Source: an uncultured virus (IMG/VR IMGVR_UViG_2875882051_000003)
Taxonomy: Duplodnaviria; Heunggongvirae; Uroviricota; Caudoviricetes
Strand: one strand, 5' to 3'
DNA: 20,000 bases
Virus record (IMG/VR): IMGVR_UViG_2875882051_000003
A program made the translations under genes and the position numbers. Each line of letters begins with the position of its first letter. Position 1 is the first letter of the stretch. The notes under the pieces were generated by a model that saw only the letters and a program-made list of their open reading frames with translations, had not been told where the DNA came from and ran no database searches. Below are positions 1 to 15,436 of this stretch, one piece after another.

Positions 1-2
1 TA

Positions 3-623
3 AAAATGCAGTCGGCTCCATTAAAAGAAACTAAAATAGAAAAAATAAATGAGTATAAAGATAAAGATATAAACGGTACTAAATACAAAAATGTTGTAGA
101 ATTTAATGTAACTGAAACTTTACATGATGCTTATGACGATAAAGATGTGAACAATCAATATAAACGATATGTTGTTAGTGAAGATGGAAATTGGAAATTA
201 TGTAGTTCAGATGAAAAAACAGATATTAAAGAAGATATAGCTAAAGAAATGGCTAGAGTTTCAGGAATGTATATAGATGGAAGAGGACAAACAAAGGATT
301 TAAATAAAGCAGCATCAATATTAACAGAAACGGTTAGTATTAAACCTGAGTATGCTCAAACTTATTATATACTAGGTACTACTTTATCAAAGCTGGGAAG
401 ATATGATGAATCTATAAATAATATACAGGAGTTTCTAAATAAAACTAACGATGATAAGGGAAAATCTGATGCATATAATGTTTTGGGAGTAGATTATGAA
501 GTAAAGAAAGACTATTCTAAAGCTAAAGAGAATTATAATAAAGCTATCGAATTAGATAATAATAATCAATATGCAAAAACTAATTTAGAGAGGGTAAATA
601 ATTTAAGTAAGTTAGGATTTTAA
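3..623 (+). CDS. TPR-repeat protein, probably 5'-truncated by the window; moron-like gene upstream of the xkdP-like gene
   Basis: Frame is open from the window edge. C-terminal TPR helices: YAQTYYILGTTLSKLGRYDESI and SDAYNVLGVDYEVKKDYSKAKENYNKAIELDNNNQYAKTNL. Followed by its own terminator. Confidence 0.75.
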   Translation, partial: KMQSAPLKETKIEKINEYKDKDINGTKYKNVVEFNVTETLHDAYDDKDVNNQYKRYVVSEDGNWKLCSSDEKTDIKEDIAKEMARVSGMYIDGRGQTKDLNKAASILTETVSIKPEYAQTYYILGTTLSKLGRYDESINNIQEFLNKTNDDKGKSDAYNVLGVDYEVKKDYSKAKENYNKAIELDNNNQYAKTNLERVNNLSKLGF

Positions 624-629
624 AACTAA

Positions 630-677
630 AATAATAGAAGCATCTATAATAAATTTATTGTAGGTGCTTTTATTATT
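630..677 (+). terminator. Rho-independent terminator after the TPR gene
   Basis: Inverted repeat aataatagaagcatctataataa / ttattgtaggtgcttttattatt, with G-U pairs on the + strand. Confidence 0.75.
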
Positions 678-704
678 ACTCAATATTTGAATGGAGCTGA
701 GATA

Positions 705-1391
705 TTGGACGTATATTTAAAAGATGAATCAAAGAGTTATACTCTGCAGTTTCCTGTTAATCCACTAGATAAGATATCTAATCCTAAAGAGAAAAAATAT
801 ATAACTGCAGATATTATAAATTTTGGAGAAGTTGATATTTCTCAAAAGGGAAGCAAAATAAGAGAAATAAGTTTTAATTCATTATTCCCAAAAGAATATG
901 ATTCCTATTGTAGATATGTTCCGAATATGCTGCCTATTGATTATGTTAATACAATTCAGTTTTGGATAGATGCAGATATACCAGTTAGGCTTATAATAAC
1001 GGATTTAAATATAAATGAATTAGTTAATATAAGTAAGTTTGAAACAGAAGTACGAGGCGGAGAAGTAGATGATATTTACTTTAGTATTACTTTTAGGACT
1101 TATAGGGAATTGAAAATTGAAACAGTAAACAATTCTTCGAGTTCTTATTCAGGTGGGCTTCAGGATAATAGGGCAGATAATAATTCAAATCAATATATAG
1201 ATGGCGATGTGGTTAAAGTAACTGCAAGTGCATTGAATGTAAGAGATGGACCAGGAACTGATAACAATGTTTTAGGCGTAGTTTATAATGGTGAACAATT
1301 AACGATATTCAGGCAGTATGGTAATTGGGCCGACACATATTTTGGTGATCATGGAGGTTATGTATGCTTAGACTATGTAATAAAGGTGTGA
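705..1391 (+). CDS. XkdP-like tail tube initiator with a C-terminal SH3b domain
   Basis: N-terminal FPVNP...GE...REISFNSLFP...DIYFSITFRTYR motifs and C-terminal VTASALNVRDGPGTDNNVLGVV...GNW (SH3_3). TTG at 705 follows GGAG at 693-696 (ORF track start is 687). Confidence 0.75.
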   Translation: MDVYLKDESKSYTLQFPVNPLDKISNPKEKKYITADIINFGEVDISQKGSKIREISFNSLFPKEYDSYCRYVPNMLPIDYVNTIQFWIDADIPVRLIITDLNINELVNISKFETEVRGGEVDDIYFSITFRTYRELKIETVNNSSSSYSGGLQDNRADNNSNQYIDGDVVKVTASALNVRDGPGTDNNVLGVVYNGEQLTIFRQYGNWADTYFGDHGGYVCLDYVIKV

Positions 1392-1395
1392 TTGT

Positions 1396-2412
1396 ATGGA
1401 ACTTGTTTTAAAAAATAAATATAAGATACAAATATTAAGCGAGTCTGTAACACTTAAAGAAGCGATAGATGGAATAGCTTATACATTAAATATATCTCTC
1501 ATAGAAACTCAAGAATTAGAAAGTATAGGTATTAATAAAGGGGATTCTATAGAGCTTTTTGATAATGAGTTTGGTAGTGGATCTTATACTCAAGTTTTTA
1601 ACGGAATTATATGGGAGATAAATAAAAATAAAAAATCTAAGAAAATCACAATAACAGGAAAAGAAAGAACGGTTGTTATTGAAGAGTCTGAGGATGAATA
1701 CTTGTGGAGTGATGGACAGACAGCGTCACAAAGGACTAAGATAATTTGTGATGATTGGGGAATACCTATAGGTAATCTTATAGAAACTGGAACTGGGTTA
1801 GCTAAAGATAAAAGAAAAGAGTCTTTATATGGAATGATAAAGAAAGACTTAAAAGAGACTGCTCAAAAAGGTGGAGATCTTTATAAACTAAGAATGAATA
1901 CAAGTTTAGATATAATTAAGCTTGGATCAAATGAAACTATTTATAAATTAGATAATATCATTGAAGAGTTAGAAGAAAAAGACAGCTTAGATGGTGCAGT
2001 AACTCAAGTTAAGGTACTTGGAAAAGAAGATACAAAGAAAAGAGGTAGAAAAAGTAAGTCTGATAGTTCTGGGAGTTCAGATGAGAAGGAGCTTGTATTG
2101 TCTCCGATTATAGGCGTATTTAAAAAAGATACCGAAACCTATGGAACATTACAAAAAATAGTGGATGATGATAAAGTAGACGATTATGCTAAAGCACAAG
2201 CTAAAGCTAATTGTCTTTTTTCGTCTGGTGAATCAAGCAAAACAGTTAATTGTTGTAAAGATATAAATATTCTAAGAAGTGGAGACAAAGTCAGTATTTA
2301 TGATGAAGAAGTTATTATAACTGATATCACTCATAATTTAGGTTCTGGTGGGAAAATGACTTTAACTGTTATGAAAATTGATGATGTAAGGAGGAAATTC
2401 TATAGTGAGTAA
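1396..2412 (+). CDS. XkdQ/YqbQ-like baseplate hub protein
   Basis: 338 aa, TASQ..K.ICDDWGIPIG and YGTLQKIV motifs, and position after the xkdP-like gene. Confidence 0.8.
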   Translation: MELVLKNKYKIQILSESVTLKEAIDGIAYTLNISLIETQELESIGINKGDSIELFDNEFGSGSYTQVFNGIIWEINKNKKSKKITITGKERTVVIEESEDEYLWSDGQTASQRTKIICDDWGIPIGNLIETGTGLAKDKRKESLYGMIKKDLKETAQKGGDLYKLRMNTSLDIIKLGSNETIYKLDNIIEELEEKDSLDGAVTQVKVLGKEDTKKRGRKSKSDSSGSSDEKELVLSPIIGVFKKDTETYGTLQKIVDDDKVDDYAKAQAKANCLFSSGESSKTVNCCKDINILRSGDKVSIYDEEVIITDITHNLGSGGKMTLTVMKIDDVRRKFYSE

Positions 2413-2752
2413 TAATGATGGAGATGTATTTAATGAAATTAAAAGATTAATGGATAGCAATACACATGGAGCTATTAAAGGAGTTATAGAAGGAACTGGA
2501 CTTACGTTAGGAAGTATAACGGAAACTGGCCTTAAGCTAGACAATTTTAAACATGAATTTACGGATTACATGGTCTTAGATTATTTAAAGATGGAAGACA
2601 ACTATACAACAGAATTAGCAGGTGATCCAAGTCATTCTCATGAAATTAAAACACCTAGTAATCTTACAAGATTAAATATAGGAGATAAAGTTTTAGTTGC
2701 TCAGTTTGGAGCTGATAATGTGGTTATAGGAAGGGTGGTTTCAAATGGCTGA
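2405..2752 (+). CDS. XkdR-like (DUF2577) baseplate spike protein
   Basis: 115 aa, HSHEI (HxH) motif, C-terminal LNIGDKVLV...VIGRV, RBS AGGAGG, synteny. Confidence 0.75.
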   Translation: MSNNDGDVFNEIKRLMDSNTHGAIKGVIEGTGLTLGSITETGLKLDNFKHEFTDYMVLDYLKMEDNYTTELAGDPSHSHEIKTPSNLTRLNIGDKVLVAQFGADNVVIGRVVSNG

Positions 2753-3185
2753 TTTATTTCCAAGTGGAAGTTTAGAGTCAACTAATTTAGAGAATAATTC
2801 ATTAGCTAATGAATTTAAAGGATCATATGCGGTTAATTTTGATACTATGGAATTTGTTAAAAATTCTGATGGAACAATAAAAATACTTAATGTCTATGAA
2901 ACTTATATTCAATGGTGCCAGTTGGCTATGATGACCGCCAGATATAAGTATAGAGCATATACCAGTAGGTTTGGTAGAGATATTATAGGTAAAATGATAG
3001 ATCAAAAAGCCATGGAATTAGAAATTAAAAGAGTTACAATAGAGGCACTAATGGTTCATCCAATGACTTCAAGTGTAGATAATTTTGTATTTGCATGGGA
3101 AAATGGCGAAGTTTATTACACCTATGAAGTCACAGCTACAAGTGGGCAGAGCACAGTTATTTCAAATACAGAAAAAGTGGGGTGA
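2745..3185 (+). CDS. XkdS-like (DUF2634) baseplate wedge / sheath initiator
   Basis: IQWCQLAMMTARYKYRAYTSRFG...EIKRVTIEALMVHP motif and synteny. Confidence 0.85.
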   Translation: MADLFPSGSLESTNLENNSLANEFKGSYAVNFDTMEFVKNSDGTIKILNVYETYIQWCQLAMMTARYKYRAYTSRFGRDIIGKMIDQKAMELEIKRVTIEALMVHPMTSSVDNFVFAWENGEVYYTYEVTATSGQSTVISNTEKVG

Positions 3186-3192
3186 TTAAATT

Positions 3193-4296
3193 ATGGCGGA
3201 TTTAATTCTTCCGGATTTTATAACAGAAAGTGCCAATGATATTCATGCTAGGATGATTGCAGAAGCTCCAGAGAATATTTCAACTATTGAAGGTGATATG
3301 TTTTGGAATTCGACAAAGCCATCAGCTAAAGAGATAGCAAGAGCTAAAAATATAGCACTTAAGAAAATTTTATATTCAAGGTTTCCACAAACAGCTAATG
3401 ATAATGACTTGGATTGTTGTGGTGAAGAATCAGGGGTTAAAAGAAATGATGCTGATTATGCAATACAAAAGATGTTATTTATCGGTGCAGAGGGAACTAC
3501 AATAGAAAAAGGTAGAATAGTTTGTACAGAAGCTACAGAGGAAAATTCATCAATTGAGTTTAGTATTTTAGATACAGTTACTATAGATTCAAGCGGTGAA
3601 GCTACGGTGAATGCAAAATGTACAATAGAGGGCACGATAGGAAATGTAGCTATAGGAGAAGTTAAAATATTAGCTAAATCTCTAAATGGAATTTCTAGTG
3701 CTTCAAATATAGAAATAATCCAAAATGGCGTTGATAAAGAAGATAACGAAAGTTATAGACAACGAATATTAGAAAAAGACAGAAAGCCAATTACAAGTGG
3801 CAATAAGTACCATTATGAAATGTGGGCTAAAGAAGTTGATGGAGTTGGAGCTGCTAAATGTATTCCAGCGCCTGGTAATGTAAAAGTAATAATTACAGAT
3901 GTAAATAAACATGCAGCTACAGCTGAACTTATTAAAAAGGTTTATGATTATATAGATTCTGTAAGACCAGTTTTAGCAGGGACATTAACAGTTGTAAGTG
4001 CAGTTGAAAAGCCTATTAATGTGACAGCTAATGTGCAGCTAGTAAAAGGATATAATCTAGGTACTGCTCAGAAAGAATTTAGTGATTCCATTGATAAGTA
4101 TTTAAAAGAAATTCATTTTGATTCTACCAATACTACGAGCAACTATGTAAGTATAGCAAAGGCAGGGAATTTGCTTTTTAGCGTAACTGGTGTAATAGAT
4201 CATGCTGATTTAAAAATTAATGGATTAACATCTAATATAAGTCTTGCAGATGAAGAAATTGCGGTTCTTGGTACTGTAAATTTAGGAGTGATGTAG
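3193..4296 (+). CDS. Baseplate J / XkdT-like protein
   Basis: 367 aa, G.D.E..ESYRQRI and SGNKYHYEMWAKEVDGVG motifs. Confidence 0.9.
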   Translation: MADLILPDFITESANDIHARMIAEAPENISTIEGDMFWNSTKPSAKEIARAKNIALKKILYSRFPQTANDNDLDCCGEESGVKRNDADYAIQKMLFIGAEGTTIEKGRIVCTEATEENSSIEFSILDTVTIDSSGEATVNAKCTIEGTIGNVAIGEVKILAKSLNGISSASNIEIIQNGVDKEDNESYRQRILEKDRKPITSGNKYHYEMWAKEVDGVGAAKCIPAPGNVKVIITDVNKHAATAELIKKVYDYIDSVRPVLAGTLTVVSAVEKPINVTANVQLVKGYNLGTAQKEFSDSIDKYLKEIHFDSTNTTSNYVSIAKAGNLLFSVTGVIDHADLKINGLTSNISLADEEIAVLGTVNLGVM

Positions 4297-6444
4297 TTGG
4301 ATGTAAGCAAATTTAATGAAAAGCTTAATAGAGTAGATGGTCATACTTATGTTATAGAAGAAACTGTTTATCCTGTAAATGGAATATACGAAAAAGAGCT
4401 TATACATGATAATGTAAATATCACAACTCTTAATGTGTATACTGGAAGTAGATTGACAGGAGATAAAATTGATTCTTACTCAACTTCAACGCCAAGTATG
4501 ACTCCGTGGAAAACTATAATAAGGATATTTAGCAGCATATCACCTTTATATATAAGTTATGAGACTACAGGAGATCAGATTGAAGCTGAAGATATAAACA
4601 ATCTTCAAGATGCAGTTGTTGAAACTCAAAAAAGTCTTAATAGCGAAATTGATAGAGCTATAGGTGCCGAAAAAGCACTAACTGACAATTTAAATACAGA
4701 AATATCAAGGGCAAAGAGTTCAGAAAATATGTTAACAAATAACTTGAATTCTGAGATTACTAGAGCAAAAGGTGCAGAAAGTACATTAACTAATAATTTG
4801 ATTAATGAAGTTAATAGAGCGACAGCAGCGGAAAACAATTTAAATAATAGTATTAATTCAGAAGTAAATAGGGCTAAATCAGCTGAAAGTACTTTGGCAG
4901 TTAATCTTAACTCTGAAGTAACAAGAGCTACTAATGCAGAGATCAACCTAACCAATAATCTTAATTCTGAAATTACTCGTGCTAAAGCTGCAGAAAATAC
5001 ATTAACAAATACAATTAACACAAATAAGCCTAATTGGGATGACAAGTATACAAAAAATGAAGTTGATAATAAAATAAGCCAGGTTGTTAGTAATATGGAC
5101 TGGAAAGAGTCTGTAGGGACTTATGTTGATATAGCAACAACTTATCCAACACCTAATGATGGATGGACAGTTAATGTTAAAGATACAGATATCACTTATA
5201 GGTATAGTGGAAGTGCATGGATTCCTATTAGTGCTAACGCTATTCCTTTAGCTTCATCTAGCGTTGATGGTAAGATGTCAAAGCAAGATAAGATAGACCA
5301 TGATGATATGAATAGTAAAAAACATACACATTCTAATAAAGGGATTATAGATATTATTACTCAAGCTTTAATTGATAACTGGAATGCTGCTTATACCCAT
5401 ATTTCAGATACAGTAAAACATATTACAGCAACAGAAAGGACATTGTGGAATTCAGTAAGTAATAAATCAGATGTAGGACATACTCATGTAGCTGTAAATA
5501 TTACTGATTTAATATCTACAATAAGATCATGTGCACTAACTGGTTTATCTACTACTACAAATTCAATAATTAGCGCGTCTGATACTATACTTGGAGCATT
5601 AGGGAAATTACAGTCCCAAATTACAGCAAATTTAAGTACTCTAACCAATCATACTAGTAATACAAATAATCCTCATTCGACTACTGCAAGCCAAATAGGA
5701 TTAGGGAATGTTACAAATGATTCTCAGGTAAAAAGAAGTGAAATGGGCGCTGTTAATGGAGTGGCCACACTTGATAGTTCTGGTGTCAATAGTCAAGCTC
5801 CAAAATCTCATACTCATGATGATAGATATTATACAGAATCAGAAGCAAATGCAAAGTTTGCAACAATAGCACAAATAACACAGGCAGGATATGGCGATAT
5901 GATGAAGAATGTATATGATTCTGATAATGATGGAGTTATAGATATTTCTAAGGCGATACAGAAATATATGACACCTAATAGTTCATCAAGTTATACAGGG
6001 CAATATAGTAAAATTGCTTCAATAACAATTACATCTCAATATAAAGATGCTAATGCTATTATAGATATAACTAGCACTGGAAGTGGAAATAGCATTCAAA
6101 CGAAAGGAACTCTTTATTTTAGAGTCAAGCAACAAAATGCATTGGGATCTCTTCCATATATTGATTTAAAAATAGTTAATTCTGAGGTTATAGGAAATGG
6201 TAATTTCGTTGCTGTTATAACTATCAATACATCAACTGTTACAACAGTAGAACTTTATTATAAAGCTGTTCAATCTTATGATGCACTTGTATTTGTTCCA
6301 ATATATAATAATGATTTTATTTTCTATAATAATCAAGCGTTTATATCATCTTTGCCTAGTGGAAATCAGATTGCATGTCTGAACTTAGTGTCAAATGGGA
6401 CATTGAAACCAGGTTTAACATGGAATGATTTAGAGGGGGTATAG
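4297..6444 (+). CDS. Long tail-fibre-like structural protein (coiled-coil repeats, HxH motifs, variable C-terminal head)
   Basis: TTG start after AGGAG, 7x18-aa repeat, three HTH tripeptides, HTSNTNNPHSTTASQIGLGNVTND fibre motif, GDMMKNVYDSDNDG motif. Confidence 0.7.
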   Translation: MDVSKFNEKLNRVDGHTYVIEETVYPVNGIYEKELIHDNVNITTLNVYTGSRLTGDKIDSYSTSTPSMTPWKTIIRIFSSISPLYISYETTGDQIEAEDINNLQDAVVETQKSLNSEIDRAIGAEKALTDNLNTEISRAKSSENMLTNNLNSEITRAKGAESTLTNNLINEVNRATAAENNLNNSINSEVNRAKSAESTLAVNLNSEVTRATNAEINLTNNLNSEITRAKAAENTLTNTINTNKPNWDDKYTKNEVDNKISQVVSNMDWKESVGTYVDIATTYPTPNDGWTVNVKDTDITYRYSGSAWIPISANAIPLASSSVDGKMSKQDKIDHDDMNSKKHTHSNKGIIDIITQALIDNWNAAYTHISDTVKHITATERTLWNSVSNKSDVGHTHVAVNITDLISTIRSCALTGLSTTTNSIISASDTILGALGKLQSQITANLSTLTNHTSNTNNPHSTTASQIGLGNVTNDSQVKRSEMGAVNGVATLDSSGVNSQAPKSHTHDDRYYTESEANAKFATIAQITQAGYGDMMKNVYDSDNDGVIDISKAIQKYMTPNSSSSYTGQYSKIASITITSQYKDANAIIDITSTGSGNSIQTKGTLYFRVKQQNALGSLPYIDLKIVNSEVIGNGNFVAVITINTSTVTTVELYYKAVQSYDALVFVPIYNNDFIFYNNQAFISSLPSGNQIACLNLVSNGTLKPGLTWNDLEGV
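4633..5010 (+). repeat. Seven degenerate 54-nt (18-aa) tandem repeats, consensus NLNSEITRAKxAExxLTN
   Basis: Read directly from the translation, from SLNSEIDRAIGAEKALTD to NLNSEITRAKAAENTLTN. Confidence 0.9.
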
Positions 6445-6445
6445 C

Positions 6446-7060
6446 ATGTATGGGTCAAATCAATATGGTGTAGTAAAGTATGCAGAGAACATACCGACAC
6501 CAGAAGATATAAGCAAATACAAGATTAATTTAACAAAATATGTACCTACTTTTGTAAGTGAAATTCCAGAAATGAAAGCTTCCTATGATGTGCAAGGCAC
6601 CGAATTAGGAAGCTTTTTGTATTATGCGGACGACATTAAAAAACAATTACATATAGATACAGCTATATGGGGGTTAATCTTTTGGGAAGAAAGATATGGG
6701 ATTGAAACTAACTTAGCCTTAAGCTATGAGCAAAGAAGAGAGATTGTAAAAGCTAAGAAAAAAGGTCAAGGAACTACAACAAAACAGATGATTAAAAACG
6801 TAGCTGAAACCTTCTCTGGTGGAGAAGTTGATGTGATTGAAAATACAGCACCATATACATTTACTATTCAGTTCATGGGAGTTAAAGGAATTCCACGTAA
6901 TATGCAGGCATTTATTAATATGCTAGAGGATATTAAACCAGCTCACTTGGGATATGTATTTAAGTATACTTATACCAATTGGGACTATTTAGATAGTAAA
7001 AAACTATCTTGGAATAATGCTGAAAACAATACTTGGAATCAGCTAGAAATATACGATTAA
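6446..7060 (+). CDS. XkdU/YmfQ-like (DUF2313) baseplate protein
   Basis: DTAIWGLIFWEERYGI...RREIVKAK.KGQGTTT...IKPAHL motifs. Confidence 0.88.
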   Translation: MYGSNQYGVVKYAENIPTPEDISKYKINLTKYVPTFVSEIPEMKASYDVQGTELGSFLYYADDIKKQLHIDTAIWGLIFWEERYGIETNLALSYEQRREIVKAKKKGQGTTTKQMIKNVAETFSGGEVDVIENTAPYTFTIQFMGVKGIPRNMQAFINMLEDIKPAHLGYVFKYTYTNWDYLDSKKLSWNNAENNTWNQLEIYD

Positions 7061-7073
7061 GGAGGATGATTAA

Positions 7074-8078
7074 ATGCAATTATCAACTAATTACATGTTA
7101 AAAATGCCTGAAGGAACAGACAATGTTAAAAGGCAAGATTTTGTAGATAACTTTGCAAAAATTGATTCTGTAATGAAAGAACATGATACGCACTTGTCAG
7201 ATATGGTGTATCAAACAGCAGGCGGATCTGCTACAGCAATAACACTTACAATTAAAGGAACGCTAGTAACTGGATATCCAATAACTTTTATAGCAAGTGC
7301 AAACAATGGTGGAGCCGCAACTACTATAAATGGTAAAAAATTATATAAACCAGGAACAACAACATCACCAAACTTAATAGCAGGAAAGGCATATACTGTA
7401 TGGTATAACTCGATAAGTGACTGTTTTTTTATTAAAGCTAGTGCAGAAGGGGATGCAGATGTCTCTAATGTACTAGCAACTAAAAAATTTAGTAATGATA
7501 ATGATACAGGATTAGTTGGAACAATGCCTAACAATGGGGCAGTAAATCAGTCTTTGCCTATAAACGGTTCTTATACAATTCCAAAAGGATTCCATGATGG
7601 AACTGGAAAAGTAACTCAAAGTATTCCAACAAAAGCTGGAATAACAATAAATCCTAGTACGTCACAGCAAGTAATAGCAGCAGGTCAATACTTGTCTGGT
7701 GATCAAACAATAGCAGCTATAACTGGAACAGCAACAGATGCAGATGTAGTAGCAGGTAAAACATATAATTCAGCAGCGGGTATATTACGTACTGGAAGTG
7801 CAACAATAGCAAGTTTAGGTGGAAGACAATTTAAAAGTGGTTCATTTGTTGGAAATCTTGGTGCAGTTACGGTAAACTTACCATTCAAACCTAGCATAGT
7901 GTATATGTATTGGAATTATTACGGCACTTTAATAAAGAGCGTTCTTTTTAGCGTTATTGATCCAAATACGTTCTATAACTTGAGTGGAACTGCTACTGAA
8001 GCAGGTAGTGTTGGAAATAACTTTTTCACAAGAAACGGGACGGGCGATGCTACTTGGTATTGGTATGCTTGGGAATAA
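7074..8078 (+). CDS. Tail fibre / receptor-binding protein
   Basis: N-terminal STNY.LK.PEGTD.V...F.DNF.KID anchor, GTMPNNG and YTIPKGFHDGTGKV repeats, GTATDADVVAGKTY, aromatic C-terminus. Confidence 0.75.
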   Translation: MQLSTNYMLKMPEGTDNVKRQDFVDNFAKIDSVMKEHDTHLSDMVYQTAGGSATAITLTIKGTLVTGYPITFIASANNGGAATTINGKKLYKPGTTTSPNLIAGKAYTVWYNSISDCFFIKASAEGDADVSNVLATKKFSNDNDTGLVGTMPNNGAVNQSLPINGSYTIPKGFHDGTGKVTQSIPTKAGITINPSTSQQVIAAGQYLSGDQTIAAITGTATDADVVAGKTYNSAAGILRTGSATIASLGGRQFKSGSFVGNLGAVTVNLPFKPSIVYMYWNYYGTLIKSVLFSVIDPNTFYNLSGTATEAGSVGNNFFTRNGTGDATWYWYAWE

Positions 8079-8107
8079 ATTTAATTAAAAATAGGGAGTG
8101 AACAATT

Positions 8108-8386
8108 ATGAAAACATTAGTAATATATGACAATGTAGGTTATATATATTTACAATTAACATCAGATGACAATAGAATACCGCAAGGAGGAATTAATTAT
8201 TTAGAAGTAGAAGTTCCAGGGGGGAAAATTATAAAAAGCATTGATATTTCCGTTACACCAAACGAACCAATATATGAAGATATGCCTAAATCAGAATTAG
8301 AACTTTTAAAAGAACAGGTGGATAATCTAACAGAAGCAAATGCAGAATTGACAAGTATAGTAGCAATGGAAAAAAACAATGCTTAG
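8108..8386 (+). CDS. Small phage tail accessory protein (possible fibre chaperone)
   Basis: 92 aa, RBS GGGAG, C-terminal coiled coil, position after the fibre gene. Confidence 0.6.
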   Translation: MKTLVIYDNVGYIYLQLTSDDNRIPQGGINYLEVEVPGGKIIKSIDISVTPNEPIYEDMPKSELELLKEQVDNLTEANAELTSIVAMEKNNA

Positions 8387-8420
8387 GATAATAAATTTAA
8401 ATTTAAGGAGAGTGTTTAGA

Positions 8421-8579
8421 ATGCAATTTAACAAGAACAGTGGATGTGTAAAAGTATGGATAACATTAATAGTAGGAGGTACTTACGAATATAAGGATGT
8501 TCCTAATCTCTTGAATCTACAAGAACAGGTAAAATTAGTCCTTGTAGATATGGGTGCTATGGAAGATATAACTATATAA
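8421..8579 (+). CDS. XkdX/CD1375-like small phage protein
   Basis: ATG at 8421 after AAGGAG. W..LI..G.Y...DVP.L..L.EQVK.VL pattern. Confidence 0.6.
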   Translation: MQFNKNSGCVKVWITLIVGGTYEYKDVPNLLNLQEQVKLVLVDMGAMEDITI

Positions 8580-8619
8580 GATACCGCATCATAGGAAAAA
8601 ATGACGCATCAAAACAAAT

Positions 8620-8880
8620 AAAAAAGCAATAATTAAGGCCTTTAGGTGGTCTTTTTTATTGCTTTAAATTACCACTTATACCACTCAAAAAGATAATAAT
8701 TTAGTAGGTCATGAGAAAAACTAAAAATATTCAGTAAGTAATATCCTCAACCTTTTTAGATATAAGATACCTCGACAGAGATTTAGTTTATATAAACCAT
8801 ATTAAAATAAATTTTTTAATTAATCATAATTTATTTTAATTCTATAACTGTAGTATGCCTAAGGTGTAATAAAATATACA
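8620..8880 (-). ncRNA. Candidate SigG-dependent ORF-less transcript between the tail and lysis genes
   Basis: Minus strand reads tGTATA-N17-CATACTA (8880-8851). Only very short ORFs follow. Ends at the 8623-8665 hairpin. Confidence 0.45.
8623..8665. terminator. Probably bidirectional terminator at the end of the tail genes
   Basis: aaagcaataa-ttaaggcc...ggtctt-tt-ttattgcttt inverted repeat with flanking A and T runs. Confidence 0.7.
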
Positions 8881-8930
8881 GTTATTTATAATTTATTTTT
8901 ATACAAAATTTGGAGTAAGGAAGTGAAAAA

Positions 8931-9215
8931 ATGGATGCGACAACAATAGGGATTATTTGCACTATATCTGGCGCTATAATTGGTTATTTAGGTTATAAAA
9001 GGACATTCATAAAAGATGTAAAAGAAGAAAGCAACTCGCAGACAAAATTAGAAATGCAACTTAATTATATATCTAGAGGTGTTGACGATATAAAACTAGA
9101 TATGAAAATGCAGGATAAAAAGATTAATGATGTTATTGAAAGAGTTGCAAAAGTTGAGGAATCAACTAAATCAGCACATCACAGATTAGATAATTTTGAG
9201 AAAGAGACAATGTAA
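8931..9215 (+). CDS. XhlA-like membrane lysis accessory protein
   Basis: N-terminal TM helix, coiled coil ending RVAKVEESTKSAHHRLD, position before the holin and lysin. Confidence 0.65.
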   Translation: MDATTIGIICTISGAIIGYLGYKRTFIKDVKEESNSQTKLEMQLNYISRGVDDIKLDMKMQDKKINDVIERVAKVEESTKSAHHRLDNFEKETM

Positions 9216-9235
9216 AATTAGAATATAAATATAAG

Positions 9236-9263
9236 TTGCGCGTGTTACCTTTTATGTTAAAAT
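9236..9263 (+). promoter_or_regulatory. SigA-like promoter of the moron
   Basis: TTGCGC-N16-TAAAAT with an extended TG. Confidence 0.5.
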
Positions 9264-9315
9264 ATAGTATGGTATTAAAAATATTTTATTATATTCTTAA
9301 ATAAGGGGGAAAATT

Positions 9316-10077
9316 ATGCAAATTTTAAAAAAAGCATTAATAGGAGTCTTCTGTGTAATTTCAATCTTGATAATGTATCCAATATCTATAGTACATGCTG
9401 AGTGGAAACAAGATTCTACAGGTTGGTGGTATACTGAAGGAAATTCATGGGCTACAGGTTGGAAATATATTAATAATAGTTGGTACTATTTTGGAAAAGA
9501 TGGGTATATGGCACATGATACCATAATTAATAACTACTATTTGAATAGTGATGGAGTTTATTCTAAGGGAGGAGAAGAAGTTGATGCATATTGGAACGCT
9601 TTGAATGATAATAGTTGGTTGCAAGAAAATGGAATCATATTTAAAAATGGTAAAAGTTATATAGAAAAAGCTGTTGTTTTGGATGTAAACCAAGATGGAA
9701 TACTTGATATGCTTATATGGAATGGTACTTGTAGTGCGGATTATAAAGTATCAGTATTTACATATAGTAATTCTAAAGAAAAAATTATAAAGTTAAAAGA
9801 TATAGAAACATTTAGTGGCGGATATTTAGGATATAGTTCTTCAAAAAAAGTCTTTCTTGTTTCAGGTGGACATATGGATAATTATTTCACCGATGGATAC
9901 ACAATCGAAGATGATAAATGTGTAAATTATTATGAAAGCACAGAACATGTAGATTATCTAACTGATAATAATAGAAATGTTATTTCTGAGTCACATAAAT
10001 ATACTTTAAATGGAAAAGAAGTATCAGAAAAAGAATACAATGATAATTGGATTCAACTTGGAGAAATAAAAAAGTAA
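9316..10077 (+). CDS. Secreted cell-wall/choline-binding repeat protein (moron in the lysis module)
   Basis: Signal peptide ending VHA-EWK, GWWYTEG/WYYFGKDGYM repeats, DVNQDG loop, RBS AAGGGGG. Confidence 0.8.
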   Translation: MQILKKALIGVFCVISILIMYPISIVHAEWKQDSTGWWYTEGNSWATGWKYINNSWYYFGKDGYMAHDTIINNYYLNSDGVYSKGGEEVDAYWNALNDNSWLQENGIIFKNGKSYIEKAVVLDVNQDGILDMLIWNGTCSADYKVSVFTYSNSKEKIIKLKDIETFSGGYLGYSSSKKVFLVSGGHMDNYFTDGYTIEDDKCVNYYESTEHVDYLTDNNRNVISESHKYTLNGKEVSEKEYNDNWIQLGEIKK

Positions 10078-10106
10078 TATAAATTAAAGAAAAAATAAAC
10101 AATATT

Positions 10107-10129
10107 AGAGCTCTTATGGGCTCTTTTTT
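10107..10129 (+). terminator. Terminator of the moron
   Basis: agagctc-ttat-gggctct followed by a T run. Confidence 0.75.
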
Positions 10130-10147
10130 GGTTTCAAAAAATGAATG

Positions 10148-10199
10148 AAAGAGAACAGTAGTTTATGCTGTTATAGGTGTAGCTACTGTTCTTTTTTTT
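10148..10199 (+). terminator. Terminator-like hairpin directly upstream of the holin-like gene
   Basis: agaacagtagt...gctactgttct followed by a T run, G-U pairs on the + strand. Confidence 0.6.
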
Positions 10200-10226
10200 A
10201 TGATTTTTAGAAGGGAAGAATGTAAA

Positions 10227-10667
10227 ATGATAAGAGCAGCAATAAAGTTAATAATTAAGGTATTAGAAAGTAAATTAGTTAAAAGTGGAGTTGAAGAGCA
10301 GATTCTAAAGAATAAAAATCATATAACTGTGGGAAAGGCTGTCTGGAATATAGTAGATGAACATTTTAGAATTTCAAAGACTGTAGAAGAAAAACTTGCA
10401 AGTAAAGCAGAGATGTTCGATAAACTGTTATTAACTAAGTTTCCAGAGCTAAGTCAAGATGATGTAGCAGAAATTAGACAAAGTATTGCTGGGGAGATAA
10501 ATCAAGGTAAAGCAGCAGTTGTAGATAATTCTGAGTTAATTAAGCAATTACAGAATGATAACACTAATTTAAAAGCAGAATTAGCAGCATTAACAGAACA
10601 ATTTAATAAAGTTCAAGCGTTATTAGTAAAACCTGCTGATGTAAGCACACAACAAGTAACAGCTTAG
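10227..10667 (+). CDS. Holin-like protein (LL-H-like core) with a C-terminal coiled coil
   Basis: Directly before the endolysin. AVWNIVDE...K.EMFD.LL..KFP.L....V..IRQSI.GE.N pattern. No clear TM helix. Confidence 0.5.
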   Translation: MIRAAIKLIIKVLESKLVKSGVEEQILKNKNHITVGKAVWNIVDEHFRISKTVEEKLASKAEMFDKLLLTKFPELSQDDVAEIRQSIAGEINQGKAAVVDNSELIKQLQNDNTNLKAELAALTEQFNKVQALLVKPADVSTQQVTA

Positions 10668-10726
10668 TATTTAGAGTAGTCTTTATAGATTGCTCTTATT
10701 TTTTTATTATAGAAAGGATGATATAA

Positions 10727-11512
10727 ATGAAAGGTATAGATATAAGTAATCATAACGGAAATATAAATTTTAACCAAGTAAAAACAGAAGGAGTAGAAGC
10801 CGTTTATATTAAAGCTACAGAAGGAACAACATATAAAGATAGTTATTTAGATACTAATTATTCAAATGCACATTACGCAGGTTTAAGAACAGGATTCTAT
10901 CATTTCTTAGTTGGAACTAGTGCTCCAGAAACTCAAGCAAATAGTTTTTATAATGCTATTAAGGATAAAGCTAATGATCTAATTCCTATGCTAGATGTAG
11001 AAACTAATTTTGATGGTCTAATGGACTATATATTAAGATTCATTGCTAAATTCAAAGAGTTGTCTAATATGCAAATAGGTATTTATACTTACACTAGTTT
11101 TATGGATAATTTAGATAATAGAATTGCGGATTATCCATTATGGGAAGCAAATTATAACAATACACCATGGAAATTAAATTCTAATTTCTTTACTAATAGA
11201 GTTGGTCACCAATATAGTGAAACAGGATCAGTACCTGGTATAAATACTGATTGCGATATGAATGAATTTAATGAAGGAATATTAAATAAAACTACTGGAT
11301 ATGTTGTTACAAGCTATCTACCTAATGGTTACCAAGGAAATAATGAATTTGAAGGTGTTGATTCTGATTATGTACTCCAATATTTTAAAGGTGTTAGATG
11401 TTATTTTAGGGGAAACCAAGAGGGGGTGTGGATTGAAACACAGAATATATCCATGAGCAAATGCCTAGAATTAAAAGAAACTTTGGGAAGTTGGTTTTAT
11501 GATATAAAGTAG
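10727..11512 (+). CDS. GH25 muramidase endolysin
   Basis: MKGIDISNHNG, YIKATEG, GFYHF, LDVE, LWEANY and HQYSETG..PGI..DCDMN motifs. Confidence 0.93.
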   Translation: MKGIDISNHNGNINFNQVKTEGVEAVYIKATEGTTYKDSYLDTNYSNAHYAGLRTGFYHFLVGTSAPETQANSFYNAIKDKANDLIPMLDVETNFDGLMDYILRFIAKFKELSNMQIGIYTYTSFMDNLDNRIADYPLWEANYNNTPWKLNSNFFTNRVGHQYSETGSVPGINTDCDMNEFNEGILNKTTGYVVTSYLPNGYQGNNEFEGVDSDYVLQYFKGVRCYFRGNQEGVWIETQNISMSKCLELKETLGSWFYDIK

Positions 11513-11664: not shown

Positions 11665-12504
11665 ATGAAGAAAATAGTTGCTTTAATTGTTATTGTAAAT
11701 TTCATTTGCAGGATAATTGGGTTTACTGTAAACATTAATGAAGTTGTCAGAGTTGATAATTTAATTGAAAAAGATAGATTGCAAACTATAAAAGAAAAAG
11801 GAACTCTTGCTGTTGCAGCTGCCTCAAGTGATCCACCGTTCTATTTTTTAGATATTAACACTCAAAAGGTAAGAGGCATTGACGCAGATATAATAAATGA
11901 AATTTCAAATAGGCTTAAAATTAATAAAGTTGATTTTAAAAGCACAGTGTTTTCAGAATTATTACAAAGATTAAAAACTGACGAAAATATAGATATAGCA
12001 TCTGGTGGAATGTATATAATTCCAGAGAGAGAGAAAGAAGCATCCTTTACTCATCCATTATATGCGGAAACAGAGGCAGTTATAGTTCGAAAGGCATCAA
12101 AAATTAATTTCAAAGATGATTTGAAAAATGCAGTAGTTGGAGTAGAAAAAGGAACTATATACTTAGAATTAGTTCAAAAATGGAAGACTGCTGGCTTAAT
12201 AAAAGACATAGAAATTTTTCAAAGCATATCTGAATTGCTAGATTCAATAAACAATGGGAAAATAGATGCTGGTATAGCAGATTCACTTGTTGTAAACAAA
12301 GATTTAAAAGATAATACGAATCTTTTTTTAAAGACGCTAGATGATTATAGCCCGGAACTAATAGGGAATGTAGGAATAGCTGTTAGAAAAAATGATAATA
12401 CTCTACTAAACGTACTAAATGAAAAGATTGATGAGATGAAAGCAGATGGAACGATGTACGCAATTCTTAAAGAAAATGGATTAGATAAGAATAATATTGT
12501 GTAA
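11665..12504 (+). CDS. Orphan amino-acid ABC transporter substrate-binding protein (SBP family 3)
   Basis: RLQTIKEKGTL, PPFYF, GIDADI, FTHP.Y, VGVEKGT, GKIDA and GIAVRK motifs. RBS AGGAGG. Confidence 0.88.
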   Translation: MKKIVALIVIVNFICRIIGFTVNINEVVRVDNLIEKDRLQTIKEKGTLAVAAASSDPPFYFLDINTQKVRGIDADIINEISNRLKINKVDFKSTVFSELLQRLKTDENIDIASGGMYIIPEREKEASFTHPLYAETEAVIVRKASKINFKDDLKNAVVGVEKGTIYLELVQKWKTAGLIKDIEIFQSISELLDSINNGKIDAGIADSLVVNKDLKDNTNLFLKTLDDYSPELIGNVGIAVRKNDNTLLNVLNEKIDEMKADGTMYAILKENGLDKNNIV

Positions 12505-12526
12505 ATTAAAGAACTGATATATGTTA

Positions 12527-12671
12527 GCAGTAGCTAGGAGTAATCCAACTACTGCTTTTTTAGAATATTTAATGAGGGTAGATCATGAAAACTTTTTGAG
12601 GAATAGAAAAATATACGATAATATAACTGCTTATATCACTTTAATATATTATGGCGTTTGGAAAAATGTTA
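12527..12671 (-). ncRNA. Candidate sRNA unit A (SigK-like promoter to hairpin). The hairpin also terminates the SBP gene on +.
   Basis: Minus strand TAACA-N16-AATATATTA (12671-12642). Hairpin agcagtag...ctactgct at 12527-12557. Confidence 0.5.
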
Positions 12672-12706
12672 CTCGAATATTTGAATATATTAGTGCTCGA
12701 AAAAGT

Positions 12707-12837
12707 AAAAGCAGCAAATAGAAGGAATCTAATTACCGCTTTTTGTGAATTAATATTATGCCAGTACTGTTGAGACTACTAGTTTTTTAGGAAATACTAT
12801 TATATAACTAATATATTACAAGTTAAGGAAAATGTGA
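12707..12837 (-). ncRNA. Candidate sRNA unit B
   Basis: Minus strand TCACA-N15-AATATATTA (12837-12809). Terminator 12707-12743 has two A/C mismatches on + that are G-U pairs on -. Confidence 0.55.
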
Positions 12838-12873
12838 TAAATGTAAATGAATATAAATTTAAAATAAAAAAGT

Positions 12874-13024
12874 TTGTATTTTTGTTAAAATATGTTATGA
12901 TGTAATTGAGGCAATTAATAAAAAAAGCAAGTTGAGTTCTGATTAATAATTCCAGTATAAGGGGAGTAGAGAGAAATCTTTATTCCTCTTGTTCTTGTAT
13001 ATGCAAATATACAAGTTTGCATAT
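12874..13024 (+). ncRNA. Candidate SigA-dependent structured RNA
   Basis: TTGTAT-N16-TATGAT with TG. 14-bp stem with GAAA loop (12959-12990), 9-bp stem with GCAA loop (12994-13015). No ORF. Confidence 0.45.
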
Positions 13025-13085
13025 TGTTATGTAATTAATCCAATATATTATGCAAGTTATAAATATAAATTGTGTTATTTATTTC

Positions 13086-13245
13086 AAAAGCAGTAGTCAG
13101 GAGGTCTCTAACTACCACTCTTTATATCAAAAATAAACAGGAAAGGTGATAATAATTTCTGTTTATTTATACAAAAAAGATAATATGGCATGGAGAAAAT
13201 GCCAATTATATTAATTAATATATTGTGTAGTAAGAAGAAATGTTA
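13086..13245 (-). ncRNA. Candidate sRNA unit C with three CU-rich-loop hairpins
   Basis: Minus strand TAACA-N16-AATATATTA (13245-13216). Hairpins at 13186-13204, 13131-13168 and 13089-13119 (three G-U pairs on -), then a U run. Confidence 0.6.
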
Positions 13246-13458
13246 CAAAATGAAAATTCATAGTTTTATTAAGTAACTGTAATTTTCAATAGAGATAGGG
13301 ATTATACATAAAATATGATTCATTTAGGTATATATTTAGGATAAAAGTATCCAGCCATTAATATTATATTTAAGATTTCTAGATCTAGAGAAAAGAACAG
13401 AAGTTAAAATATTTATTATTGATCAATTATAAGACAAAGCAGTAAATGGAAGAAATAA

Positions 13459-14520
13459 TTATTGCTTTTGTGTTTTATATTCATGATAAGGCATATTAAT
13501 TGTAACCCCAGTTTCATCAAATTTATAATTTGTACCTTGAAGCGGGTTTAAATTATTAGCTAAATTCATTCCTATAACATAAAGAGCTTCAGCTGTTTCA
13601 TTTGGATCTTGTGATACAGTACCAGACATAATGCCTCTATTAATTAAATCTGTAGCTTCTGGTATTCCGTCAATTCCGAAAACCGGAATATATTTTGATT
13701 TATCTCCTTTATTGTAACCATATGATTGCAATGCATTAATAGCGCCTATGGCCATAGCATCATTGTTTGAAATTATCGCTTCTATATTTTTCCCATAGGT
13801 TAAAAATAGCAGTCTAATGGAATCTTCTGCACATTTCTCGTCCCAATTACAAGTTTTTGATAGAATTTCTTGAGTTTTTATTCCAGATTGATTAACGGTA
13901 GAAATAGAATATAAACTTCTTGCAGTTGTGACTGTAATATTGTTTGGACCCTTTAGCATAATATATTGCAATATATTATCATTATTTTTATCAACAACAT
14001 TTTTACTTGAATTCCATTCATTTGTAACAAGATCACCTTGTAAAATACCCGATTGAATAGCATCGGTAGATATAACTAGAGCTTTATTATAAGATTTAAT
14101 AGGAGCTGTTTCAAGGGGAACAGTATTAAATAAGATTATTGGAATATTTTTTTGTTTTGCTTTGTAGATAACTGATTCAACTGTACTTTGATTTAAATCT
14201 ACCAAGTTTAGTAGCAAAAGATCATAATCACTTTGAAGTACCGAATCTAGAAGAGCATTTTGTATGTCTTGATTTCTTTTGCCATCATAAAATGTAAAGT
14301 CGACACTACTGGTATTTTTATTTTGAATTTCTTCTAGTCCTTTACGAACTAAAGAAATATAAGGATCATCAAAACTAAATAGTAACACAGCTGTTTTAAT
14401 CTGCTTTTGTGGAACAGCTTGCGCAGTTGCACATTTATTGCTTGTAATGCTATTGACAAAAGTAACAGTTATAAGAATTATGGCAAGAATAGACTTTAAT
14501 ATTCTTTTGAAATTTTTCAT
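13459..14520 (-). CDS. Orphan galactose/glucose-binding (MglB-like) ABC substrate-binding protein
   Basis: FDDPYISLVR, IPIILFN, QSGILQG, DKNNDNILQY.MLKG, IEAIISNNDAMAIGA and GTVSQD motifs. RBS GGAGG. Confidence 0.88.
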   Translation of the reverse strand: MKNFKRILKSILAIILITVTFVNSITSNKCATAQAVPQKQIKTAVLLFSFDDPYISLVRKGLEEIQNKNTSSVDFTFYDGKRNQDIQNALLDSVLQSDYDLLLLNLVDLNQSTVESVIYKAKQKNIPIILFNTVPLETAPIKSYNKALVISTDAIQSGILQGDLVTNEWNSSKNVVDKNNDNILQYIMLKGPNNITVTTARSLYSISTVNQSGIKTQEILSKTCNWDEKCAEDSIRLLFLTYGKNIEAIISNNDAMAIGAINALQSYGYNKGDKSKYIPVFGIDGIPEATDLINRGIMSGTVSQDPNETAEALYVIGMNLANNLNPLQGTNYKFDETGVTINMPYHEYKTQKQ

Positions 14521-14861
14521 TAGTAGTCCTCCATAAAATCATATAAATATATTTAATTTTATGTTTCCTTAAAATTACAGAAATATTACAGAATATTTTT
14601 TAATCCTGTATTAATAAAATAATAGGAACCGTACATAAAGTACAATCCCTTTTAAGTATATATACATATACGGACCAAGAATACCCAACCACTATTATTA
14701 TATTGGAAATTCTGAGAGAAAGAACAAAGTATATTAATTTTATATAGCGAAATCTTACATTTTAGTTATTAATTAATATTTCTCATAGTAAATAAAATTT
14801 TAGTAATAAAATAGGATGAAATTTGATAATCTATTAGGATGGTAAAAGGAGAAATATAGAA

Positions 14862-15065: not shown

Positions 15066-15121
15066 TAGTTTTATTATCATTAAAAGGGTAATATATATGA
15101 TAAAAAATTTATTATATGGAA

Positions 15122-15222
15122 CAAAAGACAGCAAACTATTAATTAATTTACTGTCTTTTGGCAACCTGCCAAGCTATAAAAGATTAGCAATTATAGTATT
15201 AGTAAATTACCAATATTTATAC
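15122..15222 (-). ncRNA. Candidate SigG-like sRNA unit
   Basis: Minus strand GTATA-N17-AATACTA (15222-15194). Terminator caaaagacag/ctgtcttttg at 15122-15160. Confidence 0.45.
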
Positions 15223-15286: not shown

Positions 15287-15436
15287 ATGAAAGATGTAAC
15301 TATAGATACAATCAAAGATACAATAAGAGATCTTCCAGAAGGGGAACAAGAAGTAATATTATACTTAACAGAAATATTTAAAGGTGAAGAAGAGACTATT
15401 AATGAGTATATTAAGAATGAATTAATAGATAGATAA
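15287..15436 (+). CDS. 49-aa acidic small protein absent from the ORF track (MKDVTIDTIKDTIRDLPEGEQEVILYLTEIFKGEEETINEYIKNELIDR)
   Basis: RBS AAGGTGGTG (15270-15278), promoter TGGATT-N17-TATAAT (15225-15253), + strand terminator near 15505-15534. Confidence 0.7.
   Translation: MKDVTIDTIKDTIRDLPEGEQEVILYLTEIFKGEEETINEYIKNELIDR

Follow-up and report, generated by a model that had tools for sequence, protein, structure and literature searches.

Unit C, a predicted three-hairpin RNA with C/U-rich loops from a multicopy family of the Clostridium beijerinckii group

Described small RNAs with C-rich or anti-Shine-Dalgarno motifs

The part of PMC4132741 used here describes LhrC of Listeria as a small RNA (sRNA) present in five copies, with three CU-rich sites, in loop A, in the linker and in the terminator loop, that bind the Shine-Dalgarno (SD) sequence of lapB, and it mentions that C-rich loop motifs of RsaE/RoxS, RNAIII, SprD and FsrA are thought to bind SD sequences too (PMC4132741). 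For the csRNAs of streptococci, a block of translation by anti-SD sequences in unpaired regions has been proposed (PMC3091779, in the portion consulted). Here we compare these systems with Unit C, a predicted sRNA element on the minus strand of a 20,000-nt stretch of DNA recorded as an uncultured virus (IMG/VR record IMGVR_UViG_2875882051_000003), the whole of which is called the window below. Our favoured reading, to which we give a probability of about one half, is that Unit C represents one gene in a small family of multicopy regulatory RNAs of about 125-130 nt, which would be independently transcribed and act in trans by masking SD sequences with their CU-rich loops. For this comparison it matters that RsaE/RoxS, RNAIII, SprD and FsrA of Staphylococcus or Bacillus are single-copy, conserved across genera and endowed with known regulons, and that csRNA promoters carry a CiaR-type direct-repeat element.

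The resemblance to LhrC1-5 of Listeria monocytogenes is the broadest: paralogous copies within a genome, each with its own regulated promoter (a predicted trait in the case of Unit C), a length of about 100-130 nt, a low-GC Firmicute host, and redundant CU-rich sites distributed over a 5′ hairpin loop, the middle of the molecule and the terminator loop, sites through which LhrC pairs with the SD region and blocks translation (PMC4132741, same portion). Yet there is no similarity in sequence or to the Rfam model, the motif of Unit C is CUCC, CCUCC or ACCUUUC instead of UCCC, its hairpins are three instead of two, and an AT palindrome takes the place of the LisR-dependent promoter. Unit C and the csRNAs have in common similar sRNA genes scattered in the genome, one conserved promoter element common to them and anti-SD sequences; in the csRNAs, however, the anti-SD/anti-AUG sequence occupies an unpaired stretch between two stem-loops (PMC3091779, same portion), whereas the motifs of Unit C lie in loops. 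Unit C furthermore has no Rfam match, and its conserved box (GTAACA, a spacer and the palindrome TATATTAATTAATATA) contains no direct repeat. RsaE/RoxS, RNAIII, SprD and FsrA resemble Unit C in having C-rich motifs in hairpin loops and in belonging to low-GC Gram-positive bacteria, but the Unit C family is restricted to one clade, multicopy and, again, without a match in Rfam.

The family appears to be new, and the mechanism suggested for it would be of a well-known kind. In the published work on C. beijerinckii sRNAs that we consulted, which did not extend to the supplementary tables of PMC3025663, we found no description of the Unit C family. That survey of 2011 reports, in the part seen here, 336 unnamed computational sRNA predictions for C. 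beijerinckii NCIMB 8052 (PMC3025663), and some copies of the unit may be listed among them in the supplementary tables. The consulted section of another study reports one homologue of sr8384 in C. beijerinckii and presents sr8889, a different RNA, as encoded at a single locus (bioRxiv 10.1101/663880).

Fold, conservation and distribution of Unit C

Unit C spans positions 13081-13211 on the minus strand. Three minus-strand hairpins had been proposed here in a first-pass annotation made from the sequence alone, and folding bears this out: the minus strand of a 156-nt segment has a minimum free energy (MFE) of -33.9 kcal/mol with a z score of -4.49, none of 200 shuffles being as stable, and the unit trimmed to 131 nt has an MFE of -33 kcal/mol (z -5.14). 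Comparison of both strands, which that annotation had suggested, gives a weaker fold for the plus strand (z -2.46, 2 of 200 shuffles as stable). Folded singly, all 14 homologues have z scores between -3.4 and -6.1. Hairpin 1 (13186-13204), UGGCAU-UUUCUCC-AUGCCA, appears with a CU-rich loop in the MFE structure of 11 of the 14 copies. Hairpin 2 (13132-13167) consists of AAUAAACAG and CUGUUUAUU enclosing an 18-nt loop, AAAUUAUUAUCACCUUUC, which includes AUCACCUUUC; its AU-rich stem has 9-10 pairs. Hairpin 3 (13086-13123) is terminator-like, with an A-tract, a stem of 15 pairs, the loop AGACCUC and a terminal UUUU, the bases CUG that follow the loop being already part of the stem; it belongs to the RNAalifold consensus, has 93% of its alignment cells paired and is formed in 14 of 14 single folds. 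As to the proposal that this hairpin is a terminator, the stem is strong and UUUU comes behind it in the window copy (CUAUUAUAU in one subfamily), but the terminator scan, which demands at least five T in eight and lists hairpin 1, leaves hairpin 3 unlisted because only four U follow its stem.

Among 12 aligned copies, mean pairwise identity is 0.45 in the 5′ flank and 0.47 in the 3′ flank, 0.58 in the linkers, 0.74 in the loop of hairpin 2 and 0.77-0.80 in hairpin 3; the best-conserved part is the loop of hairpin 1 (0.87), which sits on arms with an identity of 0.58-0.65. These arms vary in a compensatory manner, as in CGGCAU/AUGUCG, UGCAU/AUGCA and CGACAU/AUGUUG, the last (L093) being that of the distant copy of genome G038, which keeps the UUUCUCC loop unchanged on the altered stem. 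In hairpin 3 a U-A pair is replaced on both sides by C-G at loci L083 and L086, and compensatory changes of this two-sided type occur in all three helices. In the MAFFT alignment of the 12 copies 84.3% of the cells are paired; a shift of the 3′ partners by one to three columns lowers this to 34-56%, and none of 500 shuffles reaches the covariation score. An alignment of 13 distinct copies fitted to the structural model, and thus leaning towards the structure, has 87.4% of its cells paired, against 35-56% in controls with a shift, and two-sided changes in 10 of 31 pairs; all these covariation figures are supportive and do not amount to proof. As to the strand, the first-pass annotation had preferred the minus strand on account of G-U orientation and of a promoter, and had considered a CsrB-like element on the plus strand as the lesser alternative. 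This preference is upheld: read on the minus strand the alignment contains 33 G-U cells and 16 A-C cells, an excess that favours that strand; the only conserved flanking element is a promoter-like box upstream of the unit on the minus strand, there being no conserved promoter on the plus side; and the plus fold is the weaker one. It is, in our judgement, quite probable that selection maintains Unit C as an RNA element of the minus strand.

The upstream box begins with the -35-like sequence TGTAACA (13241-13247, minus strand), recovered by both promoter scan and alignment, with a mean pairwise identity of 0.72; the scan reports GTAACA, an 18-nt spacer and TATATT at 13246-13217. The -35-like sequence is aligned in all copies except those of loci L070 and L054. 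A perfect palindrome of 16 bp, TATATTAATTAATATA, covers positions 13207-13222 and occurs once in the window; its identity among the 12 copies is 0.80, that of the flank being 0.45. It is probably an operator and overlaps both the -10-like TATATT (13222-13217) and the predicted start site (about 13211-13209). A 14-nt core of this palindrome is placed at the promoter of the unit in most copies; additional palindrome sites at loci L059, L063 and L060 have no common element downstream. Elsewhere in the window, a hairpin at 15119-15170 (plus strand), conserved at positions 2190-2240 of locus L042, is formed by AAAAGACAG and CUGUCUUUUGG and bears in its loop TATTAATTAAT, a second and partial occurrence of the palindrome core.

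Unit C is multicopy, a feature absent from the first-pass annotation. BLAST searches of whole genomes recover near-full-length copies with 71-85% identity, six of them in C. beijerinckii HUN142 (genome G001), together with one fragment of hairpin 3, two each in genomes G002 and G120, and one each in G003 and G008. Across the genus, any hit at E<=1e-4 is found in 8 of 123 scored genomes (130 searched, 7 unscored), and full-length copies are restricted to five of the scored genomes, all of about 6 Mb. A covariance model (R1), built from the 12 copies and the three-hairpin structure, matches Unit C with 137.4 bits (E 1.6e-23) as the sole full copy in the window; in the five genomes it recovers the 12 strong homologues at E<1e-9 plus one degenerate copy at E 4e-6, which brings the number in C. 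beijerinckii HUN142 from six to seven, with two each in G002 and G120. On a genus sample of 101 genomes the model has a hit at E<=1e-3 in 6 of the 97 scored. Within the Clostridium genomes searched, the family is confined to the Clostridium beijerinckii group. Searches with other resources were negative within their scope. The whole window has no Rfam match at gathering thresholds, models of LhrC, csRNA, RsaE and CsrB type included, and a search at E<=10 over 12700-13460 returns two hits at chance level, caiA (19.3 bits against a cut-off of 55.5, E 1.7) and a fragment of Moco on the opposite strand (E 0.74). Among viral contigs, the exact hairpin-3 pattern finds no locus, and a pattern of palindrome, gap and CTACTGC finds five loci, none matched by R1. 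In metagenomes a pattern of hairpin-1 loop, gap and AGCAG retrieves at least 116 stretches, and none of the 80 loci searched matches R1; this pattern is too loose, since it is the antisense of a common ribosome-binding site (RBS) plus ATG.

A possible trans-acting role and its rivals

How could such an RNA act? The first-pass annotation had suggested a multivalent RBS-binding RNA, of which the structured minus-strand unit, its promoter-like box and its conserved C/U-rich loops are supported, the binding and its multivalency being predictions. According to the favoured reading, transcription on the minus strand would start from the unit's own promoter, formed by the -35-like GTAACA and the -10-like TATATT with the palindrome lying over it, a site that a regulator would probably bind; several copies would be co-regulated through this common palindrome. 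The RNA would start near 13210, end at the stem-loop of hairpin 3 near 13084 and be stable. Its C/U-rich loops (UUUCUCC, AUCACCUUUC and ACCUCCU) would then pair in trans with the G-rich SD regions of target messenger RNAs, competing with the 3′ tail of 16S rRNA and thereby lowering translation. When duplexfold was applied to the whole unit and 25 translation-initiation regions of the window, the resulting duplexes were long, interrupted by many loops and of no discriminating value, the neighbouring gene ranking 17th of 25 at -18.1 kcal/mol. One specific target was considered and rejected, namely the RBS of the binding-protein gene (GGAGGACUACU) as a mirror of the 3′ arm of hairpin 3, for this RBS is not kept in locus L001 or in genome G038.

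The likeness of the loops to the 16S tail needs to be qualified. The 16S 3′ end, GGAUCACCUCCUUUCUA, was read from the related genome G008, which itself carries one copy of the unit. The first-pass annotation had seen a 16S-like sequence in each loop, and this is correct for two exact 7-mers of GGAUCACCUCCUUUCUA, AUCACCU in the loop of hairpin 2 and ACCUCCU in the loop and 3′ arm of hairpin 3; it is not correct for hairpin 1, which has only UUUCU and CUCC in common with the tail. The likeness thus amounts to short motifs, and no derivation of the unit from rRNA is detectable. In the window these 7-mers are at chance frequency (ACCTCCT 2 against 1.3 expected, ATCACCT 5 against 2.35), so that the case is made by conservation and by the location of the 7-mers in loops, not by their occurrence as such. 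Conservation itself turned out to be of a particular type: C/U-rich loops are kept among the paralogous copies, the exact 7-mers in about half of them. Across the 13 distinct copies UCC is present in hairpin 1 in nine, CCU in hairpin 2 in nine and in hairpin 3 in all 13, and ACCUUUC is retained in hairpin 2 in eight; literal UCCC is found in some copies only (L077, L080 and L075). The conserved trait is a looser C/U-rich loop core and not a faithful copy of the 16S tail.

Several observations weigh against the SD-masking reading. AUCACCU is retained in 6 of the 13 distinct copies, ACCUCCU (or CCUCC) in 7 and the CUCC of hairpin 1 in 6; ACCUCCU is half buried in the stem of hairpin 3 instead of lying in its loop; and in two near-identical metagenome contigs hairpin 3 has ACCUUCU at this place (13101). 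Hairpin 2 is part of the MFE structure in only 7 of the 14 copies folded singly, the ACCUUUC stretch being unpaired in the others. The U-tail is short in the window (UUUU) and poor in one subfamily (CUAUUAUAUAU), which makes the 3′ end uncertain. Because the copies are related by duplication, part of the covariation may be inherited. To these must be added the position of some copies in relation to one gene: an MglB-like sugar-binding protein of family Peripla_BP_4, encoded in the window at 14520-13459 on the minus strand.

In some genomes the unit lies directly upstream of the same sugar-binding-protein gene, a second feature that the first-pass annotation did not contain. The unit might therefore be a cis element of this gene: where it lies upstream it would serve as 5′ leader or attenuator, hairpin 3 terminating conditionally, and in the window it would be a 3′ untranslated region (UTR), the orphan copies being what is left of cassettes that were rearranged. 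In G038, 60 nt separate the end of the unit from the RBS of a gene that shares 91% of its nucleotides with that of the window, with no obvious promoter in between; at loci L001/L002 it is about 370 nt upstream of an orthologue with 90% identity, on the same strand; and at L042 a related pseudogene follows it. All three arrangements fit a cis leader, while Unit C itself could be the 3′ UTR of the gene, which ends 250 nt upstream of it on the same strand, with no predicted terminator in the interval; the locus is visibly mosaic, with a direct repeat of about 150 nt around the gene. A cis-acting role is thus possible for some copies. As a general explanation it runs against the distribution of neighbours: past hairpin 3, the next open reading frame (ORF) of at least 80 aa is convergent in 9 of 12 copies and comes from unrelated families (DUF7677, YmaF, Bro-N/ANT, PocR-MCP and others), and it is the same-strand MglB-like gene in only 3 of 12, the constant upstream position being limited to G038, L001/L002 and L042. 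Moreover, the unit accompanies only 3 of 45 loci of the Peripla_BP_4 (MglB-like) family, nothing follows Unit C on the minus strand of the window, the folds offer no alternative antiterminator pairing, and the orphan copies keep loops and promoter box, as decaying remnants would not. Nor is there a conserved frame with a start codon among the small ORFs (at least 22 aa) around 13 copies, and homologues do not preserve a 31-aa ORF whose end, in the window, falls within hairpin 3. The varied convergent contexts and the lack of a conserved small ORF argue against a general 5′-leader role and also against a type I toxin-antitoxin arrangement, which would call for a conserved small hydrophobic ORF overlapping the unit or adjoining it on the opposite strand. 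As an explanation of the family we consider the cis element unlikely. The mosaic nature of the region invites another interpretation of similarly low probability, by which the unit would be functionless intergenic DNA, a block of promoter-like and bidirectional-terminator hairpins that was duplicated recently and spread through recombination, its C/U-rich loops being incidental. Stems of hairpin-3 type (GCAGUAGU...ACUACUGC) do recur in nearby terminators, at 12521-12560 of the window and 323-358 of L042; neighbouring segments, namely the direct repeat, the block of a 49-aa ORF and a leader-like block, likewise occur more than once and in varying order from genome to genome; the family has a narrow distribution and is young, with each 7-mer at chance frequency in the window; and in many copies hairpin 3 lies about 100 nt past the stop codon of the convergent gene, which it could simply terminate. 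But identity drops to 0.45-0.47 right outside the unit, the loops are more conserved than their own stems, both-sided compensatory changes affect all three helices and the palindrome is almost invariant, and in the window the 360 nt next to hairpin 3 contain no end of a convergent gene.

The 49-aa ORF just mentioned deserves attention of its own. In the window it lies at 15287-15436 (plus strand) and encodes an acidic protein; tblastn finds it with 80-88% identity beside the unit in six of 13 oriented loci. There it is divergent and lies upstream of the unit at a distance of 190-390 nt, is open in five of the six, and is about 90% identical in nucleotides, above the identity of the unit itself. 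It is multicopy in genomes of the C. beijerinckii group, falls below the default length cut-off of ORF lists, matches no Pfam or NCBIfam family and is named only "hypothetical protein" in its sources, from C. beijerinckii or C. saccharoperbutylacetonicum. Possibly it belongs to one cassette with the unit. If so, Unit C would be half of a two-gene cassette in which the RNA controls the very strong SD of this ORF (AAGGUGGUGAU) or forms a joint module with it, a notion compatible with trans-acting SD masking and not exclusive of it, to which we nonetheless grant a rather low probability. By eye, and unscored, the SD could form 11 consecutive pairs (9 Watson-Crick, 2 G-U) with AUUAUCACCUU of the hairpin-2 loop, and several copies lie among phage-type genes (Bro-N, ANT and, in the window, a prophage lysis module). 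Against this, 7 of 13 loci have no such ORF within reach, in the window the ORF is 2 kb away from Unit C, on the far side of the binding-protein gene and of the duplicated repeat, complementarity to an anti-SD-like loop is common to all strong SDs, and the protein belongs to no known family. A bolder version, more doubtful still, is that the RNAs, with two or three anti-SD-like loops each, would be co-regulated decoys mimicking the 16S tail and titrating strong SD sites globally under one palindromic operator, within a mobile cassette that includes the 49-aa protein and would spread through recombination-prone islands beside prophage genes. Finally, the plus-strand element already considered in the first-pass annotation would be a CsrB-like RNA titrating CsrA through GGA in its loops; indeed, on that strand hairpin 1 exposes GGAGAAA and hairpin 3 has CAGGAGG. 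This is very improbable. Besides the z score of the plus fold (-2.46 against -4.49), reading the plus strand turns 33 G-U cells of the alignment into A-C mismatches, against 16 for the reverse change, and what would be the plus promoter is the unconserved 3′ flank (0.47), the conserved box falling downstream of the RNA. In comparison with sponges of CsrB/RsmZ type, which carry many GGA motifs in the hairpin loops of the transcribed strand, GGA is found on the plus strand only, at two or three sites at most and not in all copies: hairpin 2 lacks it in most of them, hairpin 1 loses it in L073/L074 and hairpin 3 in L072/L076.

The surrounding locus and the significance of the family

The window is AT-rich clostridial DNA. 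Its first part, 1-11512, encodes phage tail and lysis proteins (Baseplate_J, YQBQ-like, choline-binding repeats and a GH25 lysin); this prophage tail, baseplate and lysis module stops with the GH25 endolysin at 10727-11512, about 1.6 kb from Unit C. A gene for an amino-acid-type solute-binding protein follows at 11665-12504 (plus strand), and Unit C lies inside the 737-nt gap that separates it from the MglB-like gene. This intergenic region (12722-13458) has no blastn match among phage records, a search that did not include the prophage module itself. Of the genomes found through the sugar-binding protein, the nearest are those of Candidatus Clostridium helianthi and Clostridium sp. LS, with 84% identity of the amino-acid sequence, ahead of C. 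beijerinckii, C. puniceum and relatives. Among 23 sequencing runs, none listed as RNA contains the stretch. DNA contigs X2 and X3 span Unit C with three differences; of the short contigs of sequencing run X13, which we guessed to be RNA, four fall on the binding-protein gene (90-99% likeness) and none on Unit C.

The downstream copy of the direct repeat of about 150 nt lies at 13260-13418 (minus strand) and the other at 14584-14728, so that the two flank the sugar-binding-protein gene; they match positions 2231-2374 of L042 with 77% and 81% identity. At L001/L002 the order is different: the unit comes first, followed by a block of about 280 nt (12993-12699 in the window), the gene and a tail (12686-12526 in the window). 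The repeat and the different gene order in L001/L002 and G038 show that recombination has displaced either the gene or the unit. Two weak unit-like elements are also present in the minus strand of the window. The element at 12521-12624 (R1 32.2 bits, E 5e-4) is effectively a stem of hairpin-3 type, GCAGUAGUUGG-AUUACUC-CUAGCUACUGC; it adjoins the end of the convergent amino-acid-binding-protein gene and corresponds to the tail that comes after the orthologous gene at L001/L002. The other, at 12702-12805 (R1 30.2 bits, E 1.3e-3), consists of TATAAT followed by a terminator-type hairpin with the loop UUCCUUC, the promoter scan giving TTAACT, a 16-nt spacer and TATAAT at 12826-12799; it is 78% identical to the stretch directly 5′ of the orthologous gene in L001/L002. 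Both are probably the other "units" of the first-pass annotation, and the ORF called at 12521-12721 (plus strand, 66 aa, no family), which overlaps them, is probably spurious. A 16-pair hairpin, AUAAGGGGAGUAGAGA-GAAA-UCUUUAUUCCUCUUGU, is found at 12957-12992 (plus strand), with four G-U pairs that favour this strand, opposite to that of Unit C, and it lies in a block conserved in L001/L002 (78%) and L042 (71%).

Some copies of C. beijerinckii HUN142 have other neighbours. At locus L061 the unit is about 140 nt downstream of a same-strand gene (1797-2102, minus strand) for a 101-aa protein with a LytTR domain, and at L046 it lies downstream of a gene (2300-2959, minus strand) resembling those for Fe/Mn superoxide dismutases; these neighbours are possible hints to regulation. 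The Peripla_BP_4 gene past the unit in the same organism appears interrupted, with a stop codon in frame close to where the match begins (L042 3001-3010) and an ORF that restarts at 3160.

Very few sRNAs have been studied in the solventogenic clostridia, a group of industrial organisms. Were the improbable decoy interpretation true, the family would be a mobile module of translation control or conflict and not a set of housekeeping sRNAs. If trans-acting SD masking is confirmed, Unit C would represent a new multicopy family with a common promoter element and anti-SD loops, and would offer a handle on post-transcriptional control in the C. beijerinckii group: a defined operator leading to its regulator, seed loops to mutate and a covariance model for genome annotation. 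It would also constitute another independent case, comparable with those of Listeria and streptococci, of redundant CU-rich loops carried by sibling RNAs.

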